Virus record (IMG/VR): IMGVR_UViG_3300045988_011313
Span: 1 to 64,000 of that record
From: a virus
Reading direction: 5' to 3' (one strand)
Length of the DNA stretch: 64,000 nucleotides
A program made the translations under genes and the position numbers. The notes beneath the pieces are model-generated. The model saw nothing but the letters and a program-made list of their open reading frames with translations, had not been told where the DNA came from and made no database searches. Below, piece by piece: positions 37,045-48,769 of the stretch (its first letter is position 1; the number at the start of each line of letters is the position of its first letter).

Positions 37045-37118
37045 AGCCTCCTGAAGGATTTGAACCCTCTCTTCCTGTTTACAAGACAGGCTTGCTAAAC
37101 CATTAACACTAAGGAGGC
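37045..37118 (-). tRNA. tRNA-Thr(TGT)
   Basis: Acceptor GCCTCCT/AGGAGGC, anticodon loop CTTGTAA, T-loop TTCAAAT. Confidence 0.8.
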
Positions 37119-39704: not shown

Positions 39705-39781
39705 TACTGGCAGAGGGGATTGAACCCACATGCAACCTATTACCCTTTCTACTGTGTATAAGACAGAGGGGATATGCCAGT
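39705..39781 (-). tRNA. atypical tRNA-like gene with an Ile(TAT) anticodon loop; no D-arm in the canonical position
   Basis: ACTGGCA-TA-TCCCC-TCTGT-CTTATAC-ACAGT-AGAAAGGGTAATAGGTTGCAT-GTGGG-TTCAATC-CCCTC-TGCCAGT-A. It has a perfect 7-bp acceptor and a good T-arm, but a non-canonical core. Confidence 0.5.
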
Positions 39782-39788
39782 ATATTGG

Positions 39789-39862
39789 GGTGTTAGATGG
39801 GATTTGAACCCACGCCATAAGGAGCCACAATCCTCTGCTCTACCTGACTGAGCTACTAACAC
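39789..39862 (-). tRNA. tRNA-His(GTG)
   Basis: GTGTTAG...GAGGA-TTGTGGC-TCCTT...GTGGG-TTCAAAT-CCCAT-CTAACAC-C, with discriminator C. Confidence 0.8.
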
Positions 39863-39864
39863 AG

Positions 39865-39936
39865 TGCTGATGGAAAGACTCGAACTTTCAACTACTGCCT
39901 TATGAGAGCAGCCTTCTACCATTGAAGTACATCAAC
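39865..39936 (-). tRNA. tRNA with CAT anticodon (elongator Met, or Ile2 if lysidinylated)
   Basis: Acceptor GTTGATG/CATCAGC, anticodon arm CTGCT-CTCATAA-GGCAG, T-arm GAAAG-TTCGAGT-CTTTC. Confidence 0.75.
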
Positions 39937-39957
39937 TATTACTCTTCTTGACCAATG

Positions 39958-40034
39958 TTGGGATGGTGAGAATTGAACTCACCTGTAACCAACTACTCTT
40001 TCAGCTGCTTATCAGACAGAGGAGATACATCCCA
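39958..40034 (-). tRNA. atypical tRNA-like gene with an Ile(GAT) anticodon loop; same odd architecture as 39705..39781
   Basis: TGGGATG-TA-TCTCC-TCTGT-CTGATAA-GCAGC-TGAAAGAGTAGTTGGTTACAG-GTGAG-TTCAATT-CTCAC-CATCCCA-A. Confidence 0.5.
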
Positions 40035-40616: not shown

Positions 40617-40621
40617 ATTAG

Positions 40622-40694
40622 TATGGGTACTTGGACTTGAACCAAGGACAACTGGCTCCCAAAGCCAGCATTCTACCTACTGAATTACACCCAT
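40622..40694 (-). tRNA. tRNA-Pro(TGG)
   Basis: ATGGGTG...CTGGC-TTTGGGA-GCCAG...CTTGG-TTCAAGT-CCAAG-TACCCAT-A. Confidence 0.8.
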
Positions 40695-40700
40695 ATATTG

Positions 40701-40786
40701 CGGAGAGCATTGTACTCGAAACAAATACCTTATTAGGGTACTCACTATTTAGCAGATAGGACTATCACCTTGATAGTTTACTCTCC
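40701..40786 (-). tRNA. tRNA-Ser(GCT), type II
   Basis: 86 nt. Acceptor GGAGAGT/GCTCTCC, anticodon loop CTGCTAA, variable stem TACC/GGTA. Confidence 0.75.
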
Positions 40787-40827
40787 ATACTTTCCTTCAC
40801 CAATATGTCAAAGAACACCTATTATTG

Positions 40828-40912
40828 CGGAGAGATGAGGTCCCGACCCCCAAGCATTTTACTGCTCCCATTGTTTTCAAGACAAGTCCCAGTCCCACTG
40901 AGTTACCTCTCC
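40828..40912 (-). tRNA. tRNA-Ser(TGA), type II
   Basis: 85 nt. Acceptor GGAGAGG/TCTCTCC, anticodon loop CTTGAAA. Unusual T-loop GTCGGGA. Confidence 0.7.
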
Positions 40913-47906: not shown

Positions 47907-47980
47907 ACTCTCATAGCTCAGCAGCATAGAGCATTGGTTTCCTAAACCAAGGGTCGAGGGTTGGAGTCCCTCTGGGAGTA
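47907..47980 (+). tRNA. tRNA-Arg(CCT)
   Basis: ACTCTCA-TA-GCTC-AGCAGCATA-GAGC-A-TTGGT-TTCCTAA-ACCAA-GGGTC-GAGGG-TTGGAGT-CCCTC-TGGGAGT-A. The elbow pair appears swapped (C19/G56). Confidence 0.75.
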
Positions 47981-48030
47981 CTAAGGTGTTATTTGTAAAG
48001 GTAATTTGATTGTTTTTAGGTATTTATTAT

Positions 48031-48066
48031 AGGAAACTGGTATGTGATATATAGGTTTCCTTTTGT
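48031..48066 (+). terminator. rho-independent terminator-like hairpin between the two plus-strand tRNAs
   Basis: aggaaac-N17-gtttcct followed by TTTGTT. Confidence 0.5.
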
Positions 48067-48069
48067 TAT

Positions 48070-48141
48070 GTCTCCATAGTTCAAGGGATAGAACAATAGT
48101 CTTCTAAACTATATATCTGAGTTCGAGTCTCAGTGGAGATA
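48070..48141 (+). tRNA. tRNA-Arg(TCT), second copy (other strand from 41203..41274)
   Basis: GTCTCCA-TA-GTTC-AAGGGATA-GAAC-A-ATAGT-CTTCTAA-ACTAT-ATAT-CTGAG-TTCGAGT-CTCAG-TGGAGAT-A. Confidence 0.8.
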
Positions 48142-48352
48142 CAATGTCTATTTAACTACTATTTCCTGACCATGCTGTGCAAAATGACTGAAAATGTGGT
48201 GCTGATAGGTAAGCTATCACCACTTATAAATGCAACTACTTCAATGTGGGGATATAAAGAGAAAGTTACGTGACTTTAATAATGATGTTTCAATAGGAAA
48301 CAATATTTGACTTTGTTAGGACATTCTTTCAATAAGAAATGAATCCAAATAA

Positions 48353-48735
48353 GGGGCATTTTTTGGTTTTGATTGCTGATTATTTAGTAAGAGAACATGC
48401 AAAGACTGATGGAAAGACATCAAAACAATAACTGGCAATACTTCTTATAGAGTTGCTGCCTAAATAGGCTGAGTAGCACTTACTTGGAAACAGAAAGGTG
48501 CAAAGCCTGAATGAAGACTAAGGCTGAGGGTCCTACTTTAAGAGCATTAATAGGCTGTGGTCTCGCAGAAGGTAACTCAACTTTTTCCTTGTTTATGGAC
48601 AATAAAATAAGGTGGTGGAAATGCTGTAAATCCAGACAGACCCAGTGGGTAACTGACCACATTAAAAAGTAGTAAGCATGTGTAATTCTTTTATTAAAGA
48701 TTAGTAAGACAGGGGTTCGATTCCCCTATGCTCCA
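48353..48735 (+). ncRNA. ssrA: tmRNA (transfer-messenger RNA), ~383 nt, tag ORF 48434..48463 encoding GNTSYRVAA*
   Basis: 5' GGGGCAT pairs with 3' ATGCTCC (G3-U70). The 3' T-arm is AGGGG-TTCGATT-CCCCT with discriminator A. There is an internal GGC-started frame ...GTT GCT GCC TAA. AACATGC/GCATGT(G) gives P2-like pairing. Confidence 0.8.
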
Positions 48736-48769
48736 CAAAATAACTTTAGTATTAACTAAAAAAAAAAGT

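Follow-up and report, generated by a model that had tools for sequence, protein, structure and literature searches.

Phage tRNA-like genes with isoleucine and arginine anticodons share a circularly permuted D-anticodon core

Two tRNA-like genes with isoleucine anticodons, located in the tRNA array of a 64,000-nucleotide stretch of viral DNA (positions 1 to 64,000 of IMG/VR record IMGVR_UViG_3300045988_011313; hereafter the window), raise the question of what kind of RNA is encoded when the anticodon arm and the T-arm are those of a tRNA and the D-arm is not found in its place. The chain of a normal tRNA leads from position 9 through 10–13, the D-loop (14–21), 22–25 and 26 into the anticodon arm, and from there through 44–48 into the T-arm. 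Inspection of the two genes, called here gene A and gene B, confirmed the coordinates, the 77-nt size and the minus-strand orientation given in an earlier note on this DNA (Table 1), together with perfect 7-bp acceptor helices next to an unpaired discriminator and anticodon loops with U33, A37 and the triplet UAU (gene A) or GAU (gene B). In both genes, 5 nt separate position 9 from the anticodon hairpin and no D hairpin is present there. The T-arm, described previously as normal in both, does have a 5-bp stem and the 7-nt loops that were reported, but the stem of gene A contains one U.U mismatch. The segment between the anticodon arm and the T-arm, for which 19–21 nt had been given, is present in both genes and measures 21 nt. 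The compensatory change that distinguishes the two copies (CCC/GGG in gene A versus CTC/GAG in gene B) was verified in the sequence. Positions 27 and 43 are unpaired in both genes (U.U in gene A, U.C in gene B), and the base directly following discriminator A73 of gene A is C.

Table 1. Coordinates of genes A and B and of their parts in the window; sequences are written 5′ to 3′ in the direction of the gene and numbers in the feature column are canonical tRNA positions
Feature	Position	Strand	Remarks
Gene A, candidate core-permuted tRNA-Ile(UAU)	39705..39781	-	77 nt
Gene A, whole sequence	39781->39705	-	ACTGGCA TA TCCC C TCTGT-CTTATAC-ACAGT AGAAA GGGT AATAGGTTG CAT GTGGG-TTCAATC-CCCTC TGCCAGT A
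Gene A, acceptor 5′ strand ACTGGCA	39775..39781	-	partner strand 39706-39712; covariation at each of the 7 pairs in the family
Gene A, U8 A9	39773-39774	-	directly 5′ of TCCC
Gene A, TCCC (22-25, D-stem 3′ strand)	39769..39772	-	partner GGGT 39742-39745; covariation
Gene A, C26	39768	-	directly after TCCC
Gene A, anticodon arm TCTGT-CTTATAC-ACAGT	39751..39767	-	UAU at 39758-39760; stem covaries in the family
Gene A, linker AGAAA (44, 45 and three A)	39746..39750	-	bridges anticodon stem to D-stem 5′ strand
Gene A, GGGT (10-13) and D-loop AATAGGTTG (A14 A15 .. G18 G19 U20 .. G21)	39733..39745	-	
Gene A, CAT	39730..39732	-	last base is the N48 equivalent, Levitt partner of A15
Gene A, T-arm GTGGG-TTCAATC-CCCTC, acceptor 3′ strand TGCCAGT and discriminator A73	39705..39729	-	
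Gene B, candidate core-permuted tRNA-Ile(GAU)	39958..40034	-	77 nt
Gene B, whole sequence	40034->39958	-	TGGGATG TA TCTC C TCTGT-CTGATAA-GCAGC TGAAA GAGT AGTTGGTTA CAG GTGAG-TTCAATT-CTCAC CATCCCA A
Gene B, TCTC (22-25)	40022..40025	-	partner GAGT 39995-39998; C-G to U-A compensation versus gene A
Gene B, anticodon arm TCTGT-CTGATAA-GCAGC	40004..40020	-	GAU at 40011-40013
Gene B, linker TGAAA, GAGT (10-13), D-loop AGTTGGTTA and CAG	39983..40003	-	G48 opposite G15
Gene B, T-arm GTGAG-TTCAATT-CTCAC, acceptor 3′ strand CATCCCA and A73	39958..39982	-	

As had been predicted, standard tRNA finders skipped both genes. ARAGORN called neither of them in its standard, low-threshold, intron or mitochondrial modes, and both remained under the Rfam threshold. 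RF00005 reported nothing at these loci with a 5-kb search space; when the isolated loci were analyzed, it aligned them over their full length with 27.1 bits for gene A and 20.8 bits for gene B, the gathering score being 29. The ends of these alignments coincided with the gene boundaries of Table 1, and the acceptor, anticodon and T arms were all aligned, with the D-arm treated as deleted (15 model positions) and an 18-nt insertion placed in the variable region. Searches with the other Rfam families gave nothing above noise at either gene. An ordinary cloverleaf with different boundaries was considered and discarded, since ARAGORN found none in any mode and RF00005 kept the same ends; the sole low-threshold mitochondrial call of ARAGORN was an implausible Phe(aaa). 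Single-sequence thermodynamics did not favour the fold proposed below: the minimum free energy of gene A was no better than that of shuffled sequences (z = -0.45), and the minimum free energy structure of gene B contained an alternative hairpin in place of the anticodon stem.

We then compared the native order of the blocks with an order rearranged in silico, in which [10–21] was put before [22–43]. The swapped-back sequence is a canonical cloverleaf, and ARAGORN called 122 of 122 sequences after the swap (Ile-tat 105, Ile-gat 16, cat 1) versus 0 of 122 in their native order. The layout corresponds exactly to a circular permutation of segment 10–45. In the permuted molecule the chain passes from 9 to 22–25, 26 and the anticodon arm, then through 44, 45 and a short A-rich linker to 10–13 and 14–21, and finally through two nucleotides to 48 and the T-arm. 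Because the segments are the same and only their chain order is new, the usual helices and tertiary contacts remain possible: the D stem (10–13/22–25) would stack on the anticodon stem, U8 would contact A14, R15 would contact Y48, and G18G19 would face the T-loop. The predicted outcome is an ordinary L-shape built by a different strand connectivity. The acceptor/T half, with which RNase P, the CCA-adding enzyme and EF-Tu interact, is unchanged. On the basis of sequence comparison, we consider that genes A and B are very probably functional elongator tRNA-Ile species with a circularly permuted D-anticodon domain; the Ile(UAU) of gene A would read AUA, and the Ile(GAU) of gene B would read AUU and AUC. 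It is from this comparison that we infer their three-dimensional fold, their transcription and processing, their charging by the host IleRS and their use by the ribosome.

Searches of sequence collections showed that the layout is that of a widespread phage family that includes arginine tRNAs, and not merely of two paralogues of one genome. Over 120 IMG/VR contigs contain it free of indels, and 215 distinct relatives with the same layout were found in phage contigs; many of these members are closely related, and the counts therefore overstate the number of independent events. A pattern built on the 3′ core only retrieved 111 distinct 77-nt sequences with a single layout, no indels and, in every case, an NAU anticodon. 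For the arginine branch we used a pattern in which the anticodon was free except that position 35 was not A, and in which positions 24, 25, 10 and 11 were also free. It returned 80 distinct sequences, 77 of them structured, and 77/77 carried arginine anticodons (UCU 49, CCU 15, ACG 11, CCG 1 and UCG 1). Overall, the anticodons of the 215 distinct relatives are restricted to Ile (UAU, GAU), CAU or Arg, and no further isotype with a permuted core was detected with either the free-anticodon pattern or a generic descriptor of the permuted core, which gave 0 matches in shuffled DNA. The family model R1 scored gene A at 99.8 bits and gene B at 96.1 bits, both being part of its training set, and a model trained on Ile members alone gave the untrained Arg members 39–85 bits, compared to about 31 bits or less for canonical tRNAs.

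Regarding the carriers, identical or near-identical copies of gene A are present in many crAss-like contigs, and an orthologue of gene B sits between Trp and Met in a gap of Kehishuvirus tikkala that carries no annotation; the T-stem of gene B is compensated relative to this orthologue, which has GTGGG/CCCAC. Members of the family are carried by cultured phages, sequenced independently, of Streptomyces, Bacteroides, Agrobacterium and Stenotrophomonas, among them the Streptomyces BE1 phages, K. tikkala (on Bacteroides cellulosilyticus), Agrobacterium phage Atu_ph04 and Stenotrophomonas phage SOVA965; the copies of the last two have an encoded CCA. The cultured carriers include the Streptomyces phages Jay2Jay, Mildred21 and EGole. 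In GenBank, the permuted loci are nearly always unannotated or misnamed. A cellular origin was also explored and rejected: one genome from each of 185,579 species yielded 25 matches, of which 11 were real and located, without exception, on contigs of metagenome-assembled genomes, and the remaining 14, including all those in isolate genomes, lacked the stems and were chance matches.

The earlier note had proposed that the strands of the D-stem bracket the anticodon hairpin. When the 215 distinct members were parsed without requiring D pairing, the long-range helix was found to covary at three Watson-Crick pairs: 10:25 was paired in 210/215 sequences with 4 pair types, 11:24 in 215/215 with 5 types, and 12:23 in 215/215 with 4 types. 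In the shuffle control, pairing at 11:24 had a mean of 0.47 and a maximum of 0.57. Positions 15 and 48 also covary in the 215 members (A-U 170, G-C 34, G.G 9), and gene B carries the G15.G48 variant seen in nine of them. Mutual information recovered exactly the D-stem and 15:48 pairs and no competing ones. In pair counts, 96% of cells were paired; shuffling lowered this value to 79%, and sliding the partners lowered it to 55% or less. Covariation was likewise observed in the acceptor stem, at all 7 pairs, and in the anticodon stem. Outside Watson-Crick geometry, 13:22 is U.U in 208/215 members and U.U is the commonest combination at 27:43 (139/215). A GTA...TAC mini-hairpin within the 3′ segment was evaluated as a displaced D-arm and rejected: its third pair fails (A:C in 39 sequences), its first G is required by the long-range helix, and in Streptomyces phages this G changes to U jointly with its long-range partner. 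The indel-free recurrence and the covariation place the feature seen at genes A and B far beyond chance.

These data bear directly on the idea that the genes are pseudogenes, left by decay or rearrangement of ordinary tRNA-Ile genes, or assembly artefacts. Pseudogenes would escape the standard tools, as these genes do, and the acceptor stem of the K. tikkala orthologue has two U.U mismatches. In contrast, the 215 distinct sequences come from unrelated phages and habitats and show one layout with compensation in every helix, members exist in the independently sequenced cultured phages, and the version of the same core sequence in canonical order gave 0 matches in IMG/VR. The covariation effectively refutes this explanation, which we hold to be very improbable.

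The segment that follows the anticodon arm is the most conserved part of the family and conforms to the D-loop consensus A14, R15, G18G19, N20, R21. The GG segment in the variable position is thus D-loop-like, as initially suspected, with A14, an R15 that covaries with N48, G18G19 and an isotype-specific N20. An alignment of 122 Ile-type sequences shows no variation at U8, A14, G18, G19, U20, U33, G53, U55, C56 or C61; T54 and A58 occur in 120/122, and the linker reads WGAAA with an invariant GAAA; in Arg types the linker has a length of 3–5 nt. The flanking base after N73 is C in 147/149 cases, and the full CCA is encoded in 12%.

An alternative reading of the same architecture is that of functional D-armless tRNAs of the mitochondrial type, in which the anticodon stem would be lengthened by 3 bp and the 3′ segment would serve as a floppy connector; with such a connector and no equivalent of the D-loop, the molecule would adopt a flexible boomerang shape and not the canonical L. 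The D-armless mitochondrial tRNAs (mammalian mt-tRNA-Ser(AGY) and those of nematodes) have the same three-way junction, an extended anticodon stem and no D hairpin, the 5′ connector of the phage genes does pair 3′ of the anticodon stem, and the deletion of the D-arm in the RF00005 alignment fits equally well. However, it is precisely the supposed connector that is most conserved and reproduces the D-loop consensus, R15 covaries in a Levitt-like manner with the base just 5′ of the T-stem, N20 follows the synthetase rule (U in Ile, A in Arg), and T54, Psi55, C56 and A58 of the T-loop are kept. Such elements have been lost from the mitochondrial D-armless tRNAs (PMC7609411), in which the contacts between D-loop and T-loop are gone and co-evolved mitochondrial factors are needed (PMC7609411, PMC11551756). 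The phage genes, in contrast, keep the whole D-loop and the 15:48 pair at a new position, and their RNAs must serve ordinary bacterial machinery. We consider the D-armless explanation unlikely.

With the permuted-core reading, the position of the D-loop nucleotides allows the identity of the isotypes to be examined. A20 is the main determinant for bacterial ArgRS, and N20 was A in 87/89 Arg types and U in 118/118 Ile types. A73 is invariant across the Ile types, and the anticodon of the Ile branch is always NAU. Published determinants for Ile include A73 and U20 (PMC9976931). A plausible source of the Arg members is Ile(UAU), altered by the changes A35 to C35 and U20 to A20, and the family probably had a single origin by internal duplication and deletion, followed by spread among phages.

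The anatomy of genes A and B, their UAU and GAU loops and the restriction of the family to matching isotypes sustain the view that they are tRNA-like genes with Ile anticodons. Function had been judged probable because the array otherwise lacks isoleucine, and two observations support it: the genes stand in tRNA-Ile slots of the array, and members of the family replace canonical Ile genes. The accompanying statement that the other array members cover 19 amino acids has to be corrected, since tools find 26 tRNAs that cover 18, Ser being also uncalled. Two unannotated Ser-like genes lie at 40701-40912. Genes A and B occupy exactly the slots that ordinary tRNA-Ile(GAU) and tRNA-Ile(UAU) have in relatives such as crAss001 and cr126_1. 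We then looked at complementarity in 43 arrays with at least 15 tRNAs, a set in which crAss-like genomes dominate. A permuted GAU gene was accompanied by a canonical UAU gene in 14/43 arrays, and a permuted UAU gene by a canonical GAU gene in 17/43. Both permuted genes and zero canonical tRNA-Ile were present in 8/43, including this window. Three arrays had no tRNA-Ile for one of the two Ile anticodons in the sequence examined, and one was redundant for tRNA-Ile. These results show that, in large arrays, the permuted genes stand in for exactly the matching canonical tRNA-Ile. In the long open reading frames of the window, Ile codons amount to 67 per 1000 and ATA alone to 22 per 1000.

Phage tRNAs have been tied to the evasion of tRNA-targeting defences. 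This general link would suit RNAs that mimic tRNAs outside translation, either as decoys for nucleases or toxins or as sponges or regulators of IleRS and ArgRS, and an unusual core might hinder some enzymes with the anticodon loop remaining intact. Against such a role, the permuted genes replace canonical tRNA-Ile instead of supplementing it, the eight large arrays mentioned above having no other Ile tRNA. In addition, the acceptor stem, A73, C74/CCA and the T-arm are constrained as in real tRNAs, the isotype-specific N20 and N73 are preserved, and no partner enzyme is conserved near the family loci, where the best neighbour cluster was an HNH endonuclease found at 35/180 loci. A function as mimics is, in our opinion, doubtful.

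Permuted tRNAs exist as natural genes in the red alga Cyanidioschyzon merolae and as an engineered permuted yeast tRNA-Phe; there, the whole molecule is permuted and has new 5′ and 3′ ends, and processing in the alga restores a normal tRNA. They share with the phage genes the tolerance of the tRNA fold to a changed chain connectivity by circular permutation. In the phage genes, unlike in the C. merolae type, the acceptor strands lie at the gene ends with C74/CCA after N73, only the internal segment 10–45 is permuted, and the mature RNA presumably keeps the order of the gene. Cutting and re-ligation of the phage transcript into canonical order, as for the C. merolae genes, would agree with the perfect cloverleaf produced by the in silico block swap, and RNA repair enzymes are encoded by some phages. 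Nevertheless, the 5′ and 3′ ends are already normally placed, so that exchanging the internal blocks would take two cleavage and two ligation steps. There is no conservation of bulge-helix-bulge motifs or of processing signals in the flanks, and the family is not accompanied by a ligase or endonuclease gene. The linker and junction bases are highly conserved, which is consistent with their presence in the mature RNA. We find re-ligation hardly credible.

Compared to canonical tRNA-Ile and tRNA-Arg, the permuted RNAs share the 7-bp acceptor, the discriminator, the 5-bp T-stem with its 7-nt T-Psi-C loop (T54-Psi55-C56-R57-A58) and the anticodon arm with a 5-bp stem and a 7-nt loop bearing U33 and R37. 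The tertiary nucleotides (U8, A14, R15:Y48, G18G19, G53-C61, T54-A58) are also common to both, in permuted positions, as are the Ile/Arg identity nucleotides and the slots inside phage tRNA arrays. They differ in the absence of a D hairpin between 9 and 26, in a D-loop that follows the anticodon arm, in their connectivity (9 to 22, 45 through the linker to 10, and 21 onwards to 48), and in being below the Rfam gathering score and unseen by ARAGORN. Allo-tRNAs and (8/4) Ser/His tRNAs of bacteria and phages have a 12-bp acceptor branch with an 8/4 or 9/3 acceptor/T split, a long D stem and a V-arm in normal arm order (Mukai et al. 2017, PMC5389517). They resemble the permuted family in being non-standard and metagenome-mined, with some phage-borne and some UAU-bearing examples, whereas the permuted family keeps the 7/5 split, has no V-arm hairpin and has a permuted core.

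Literature searches of freely accessible full texts retrieved no prior description of the family, and a 2020 review of non-canonical tRNAs contains nothing similar to the permuted core. According to a 2024 paper, every bacterial tRNA known so far is a canonical cloverleaf, and arm-lacking tRNAs are found in mitochondria only (PMC11551756). A large family of phage Ile and Arg tRNAs, invisible to standard finders, has apparently remained undescribed. We regard it as fairly likely that these genes form a monophyletic Ile/Arg permuted family in phages of many bacterial phyla and represent the first natural non-cloverleaf tRNAs that operate on ordinary bacterial cytosolic machinery.

If functional, the family would mean that nature reaches the L-shape by another chain topology and that IleRS, ArgRS, EF-Tu, RNase P and the ribosome accept this topology without co-evolution. 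Phage tRNA censuses would systematically undercount Ile and Arg tRNAs, and analyses of codon usage and host adaptation would therefore be affected. The family would also constitute a natural experiment that separates connectivity-dependent from shape-dependent tRNA contacts, and a new scaffold for the design of orthogonal tRNAs. Because cultured host-phage pairs exist, the claim is directly testable. The rewiring may not be neutral but adaptive: an altered hinge where the D stem meets the anticodon stem could tune wobble fidelity in the split boxes AUA/AUG and AGR/AGY, or host tRNA-targeting nucleases or quality control could act poorly on the permuted RNA. In one group of contigs, the permuted gene adjoins the terminase and portal genes, mostly as the sole or near-sole tRNA.

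Re-reading of the minus strand confirmed every feature that the earlier note had described at genes A and B, two Ile-anticodon tRNA-like genes with a rearranged core. Each begins with a 7-nt acceptor strand, T8 and A9 (canonical tRNA numbering is used throughout), TCYC, a C and a 5-7-5 anticodon hairpin. These are followed by WGAAA, GRGT, the 9-nt segment A-R-N-W-G-G-T-N-R and C-A-N, and then by a 5-7-5 T-arm (loop TTCAATY), a 7-nt acceptor strand and an A. As the note had predicted, ARAGORN skipped both genes in its standard, low-threshold, intron and mitochondrial modes, and Rfam called nothing at either locus within the window array. On the isolated loci, RF00005 aligned over the full length, with the same boundaries as in the note, but scored only 27.1 bits for gene A and 20.8 bits for gene B, both under the threshold of 29 bits. 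The alignment deleted the D-arm (4 nt in place of 15 model positions) and placed an 18-nt insertion in the variable region. Rfam 15 has no family for either locus.

Features of the window and of retrieved loci
Feature	Position	Strand	Remarks
Gene A, Ile(UAU)	39705-39781	-	77 nt; anticodon loop CT-TAT-AC
Gene B, Ile(GAU)	39958-40034	-	77 nt; anticodon loop CT-GAT-AA
tRNA-Thr(UGU)	37045-37118	-	Rfam 51.9 bits; no ARAGORN call in standard or low-threshold mode
tRNA-Ser-like gene	40828-40912	-	anticodon loop CT-TGA-AA; unannotated
tRNA-Ser-like gene	40701-40786	-	anticodon loop CT-GCT-AA; unannotated
DUF2693 RNA, weak Rfam match	40621-40816	-	26 bits; gathering score 81
tRNA-Arg(CCU), tRNA-Arg(UCU), tmRNA	47907-48736	+	tmRNA tag GNTSYRVAA
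EGole (Streptomyces phage), permuted Ile(GAU) gene	L197:1495-1571		labelled 'tRNA-Leu', codon UUA
Slicko01 (Alishewanella phage), permuted-type gene	L401:585-663		Arg(UCU) loop; labelled 'tRNA-Ser'
Gastranaerophilales MAG contig CALUTN010000183.1	L182:5129-5205		partial fit to the family
Permuted Arg(UCU), Arg(CCU), Arg(ACG) genes	L315:1193-1532		together

In the arrangement we propose, TCYC would represent positions 22-25, the following C position 26, and the anticodon hairpin positions 27-43. W and G would be 44 and 45, followed by an AAA spacer, GRGT would be 10-13, the 9-nt segment would supply A14, R15, 16, 17, G18, G19, U20, 20a and R21, and the final base 5' of the T-stem would be N48. 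In this reading, segment 10-45 is circularly permuted, with its old ends joined (45 to the linker to 10) and a new opening between 21 and 22, and the acceptor/T domain is unchanged. The strand 22-25-26-27-31 would stay unbroken, as in every tRNA, so that the D stem could still stack on the anticodon stem with the D-loop at the elbow end. In the yeast tRNA-Phe core, A9 lies in the D-stem groove beside 23, and A21 and C48 occupy adjacent layers; by analogy, the chain connections from 9 to 22 and from 21 to 48 look feasible. We infer this three-dimensional fold from conserved and covarying positions. Single-sequence folding did not favour the permuted model for gene A (z = -0.45) or for gene B, whose minimum free energy structure contains an alternative hairpin; this counts against the model, though weak support of this kind is common for tRNAs.

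Phage relatives with the same layout form a permuted-core family. A 5'-core pattern retrieved 58 IMG/VR contigs with 29 distinct 77-nt sequences, and a second pattern, in which only the 3' core was fixed and the entire 5' half and the anticodon were free, gave at least 111. Among the matches listed for the latter, the layout was identical, with no indels, and every anticodon was NAU (UAU in most, GAU in some and CAU in one). In 29 sequences, paired cells reached 96%; shuffles gave 79%, and slid partners no more than 55%. Among 122 distinct Ile-type sequences, the highest mutual information fell precisely on the pairs of the acceptor, anticodon and T helices and on 11:24 (C-G 69, U-A 51, U.G 2) and 15:48 (A-U 91, G-C 23, G.G 7). 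A second covarying D-stem pair was found in Streptomyces phages, where TACC/GGTT changes 12:23 from G-C to U-A. When 215 distinct members were parsed with no requirement for D pairing, 10:25 was paired in 210 (G-C 165, C-G 37, A-U 7, U-A 1), and both 11:24 and 12:23 in all 215, with five and four pair types, respectively; 13:22 was U.U in 208, and 15:48 was A-U in 170, G-C in 34 and G.G in 9. When partners were shuffled among sequences, 11:24 pairing fell to a mean of 0.47 (maximum 0.57). ARAGORN detected none of the 122 native sequences; after an in silico block swap that put [10-21] before [22-43], it found a canonical tRNA in 122/122 (Ile-tat 105, Ile-gat 16, cat 1). The canonical-order version of the same core had no match in IMG/VR, so this core exists in permuted order only. 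Covariation and the block swap thus support and extend the topology that the note had read for the displaced D-stem and D-loop.

The family is not restricted to isoleucine. A generic structural descriptor, with 0 matches in shuffled DNA, found two Arg-anticodon members among the retrieved loci. Two further IMG/VR scans were run, the second with the anticodon (except that 35 was not A) and positions 10, 11, 24 and 25 free. It returned 80 distinct sequences, and all 77 that passed the stem filters carried Arg anticodons (UCU 49, CCU 15, ACG 11, CCG 1, UCG 1) and many D-stem combinations, complementary in every case. There is also a CAU branch with an Ile-like core, which could be Ile2 or Met. 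The base 3' of G18G19, position 20, was U in 118/118 Ile members and A in 87/89 Arg members, and every Ile member had A at N73. The chief determinant for bacterial ArgRS is A20, and the determinants listed for Ile include A73 and U20 (PMC9976931). This isotype-specific nucleotide argues strongly that the displaced segment would occupy the site where synthetases expect the D-loop. With a covariance model built from Ile members only, genes A and B, being training sequences, scored 99.8 and 96.1 bits; canonical tRNAs of the window reached no more than 23.6 bits, and Arg members, absent from the training set, 39-85 bits. Cultured carriers of permuted Arg(UCU) genes include Agrobacterium phage Atu_ph04 and Stenotrophomonas phage SOVA965, both with CCA encoded directly 3' of the discriminator; BLAST added Limnohabitans phage DC31 and Microbacterium phage Zooman as candidates. 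Because UAU and UCU differ at position 35 only, and Arg members with an AGAAA or TGAAA linker are elsewhere almost identical to the Ile core, the family may plausibly have arisen once, with a later change of isotype (A35 to C35, U20 to A20). The Arg tRNAs of the window phage are canonical, and permuted ones occur in other phages.

The window array lies on the minus strand at ∼36.8-41.4 kb and contains 23 tRNAs by ARAGORN, which also called a tmRNA and, near 48 kb, two plus-strand tRNAs. The source is a crAss-like phage that has relatives in Steigviridae/Asinivirinae. Two of the genomes compared, crAss001 and cr126_1, share the syntenic order Trp-Ile-Met-His-Ile-Lys-Lys, in which Ile(GAU) and Ile(UAU) are ordinary and annotated; the window has Trp-[gene B]-Met-His-[gene A]-Cys...Lys-Lys. 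Kehishuvirus tikkala carries a normal tRNA-Ile(UAU) in slot A and, in an unannotated 90-nt Trp-Met gap, a gene B orthologue that keeps the odd layout with a compensated T-stem. No tRNA-Ile besides genes A and B was found in the window, where 67 of every 1000 codons in long ORFs encode Ile, 22 of them being ATA. Among 43 arrays of 15 or more canonical tRNAs, many of them from related crAss-like genomes and hence not independent, 14 combined odd GAU with canonical UAU, 17 combined odd UAU with canonical GAU, and 8, including the window, had the two odd genes without any canonical Ile; in 3, one of the two anticodons had no tRNA-Ile in the available DNA, and only 1 was redundant. The base 3' of N73 was C in 147/149 flanks, and CCA was fully encoded in 12%, compared with 1.6% expected by chance. 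Array complementarity and the lack of a canonical Ile in the window favour the functional role that the note had proposed, and on this comparative evidence genes A and B are likely to be functional core-permuted tRNA-Ile(UAU) and tRNA-Ile(GAU) of a widespread phage Ile/Arg tRNA family. No protein gene was consistently linked among the neighbours of family members, so the permuted RNAs presumably use host enzymes. The commonest neighbours were HNH homing-endonuclease genes (35/180 loci, flanks of retrieved loci L001-L198). In one contig group a permuted Ile(UAU), mostly the sole or near-sole tRNA, is followed immediately by the large terminase and portal genes, and in the 77 Streptomyces phages a phage tRNA nucleotidyltransferase gene directly precedes the permuted gene. 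It is speculation that the permutation might alter the hinge and so wobble fidelity, or let the RNA escape host nucleases.

Whole-molecule circular permutation, with moved termini, occurs in the permuted tRNA genes of C. merolae and in engineered tRNA-Phe, whereas the termini of the present family are normal. D-armless mitochondrial tRNAs come closest in secondary-structure topology, but the D-loop elements that this family keeps are lost in them (PMC7609411). Allo-tRNAs alter the acceptor/T split and not the arm order (PMC5389517), in contrast to the changed arm order here. A 2024 paper described all known bacterial tRNAs as canonical cloverleaves and arm-lacking ones as mitochondrial only (PMC11551756), and our full-text literature search found no description of permuted-core tRNAs. 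We rate the permuted genes as tRNAs of a new topology.

Many family contigs come from outside both the gut sample and the crAss-like group, and many have the permuted gene as sole or near-sole tRNA. GenBank carriers include 77 Streptomyces phages (Samistivirus, cluster BE1), tikkala, cr130_1 and others, nearly always without annotation of the gene. When one genome of each bacterial or archaeal species was scanned, true members numbered 11, and every one lay on a MAG contig; 14 other matches, including all those in isolate genomes, lacked the structure, so the family is phage-borne. On the Gastranaerophilales contig, the 3' half (AGAAA GGGT AGTCGGTCG CAC and T-arm) fits the family, the 5' half does not and the acceptor stem fails to form; this could be a truncated copy or an insertion-interrupted member. 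The public annotations of EGole and Slicko01 look wrong, the Leu label evidently being a misreading of the loop CTGATAA.

In the window, the two Ser-like genes lie in tandem in the Pro-Asp gap, the tRNA-Ser site in relatives, and were called by neither ARAGORN nor RF00005. In the fold of each, the acceptor stem has 8 bp, the D stem has 6-7 bp and a loop of 3 nt, and the variable arm is long; this resembles the allo-tRNA or (8/4) Ser type (Mukai 2017). The DUF2693 match is probably due to chance; it overlaps both tRNA-Pro and the second Ser-like gene. On several phage contigs, permuted-core tRNAs also stand side by side in sets of two or three (retrieved loci L315, L322, L343, L349, L366, L372, L378 and L356), and at another locus, L186, a permuted Arg(UCU) adjoins Ile(UAU).
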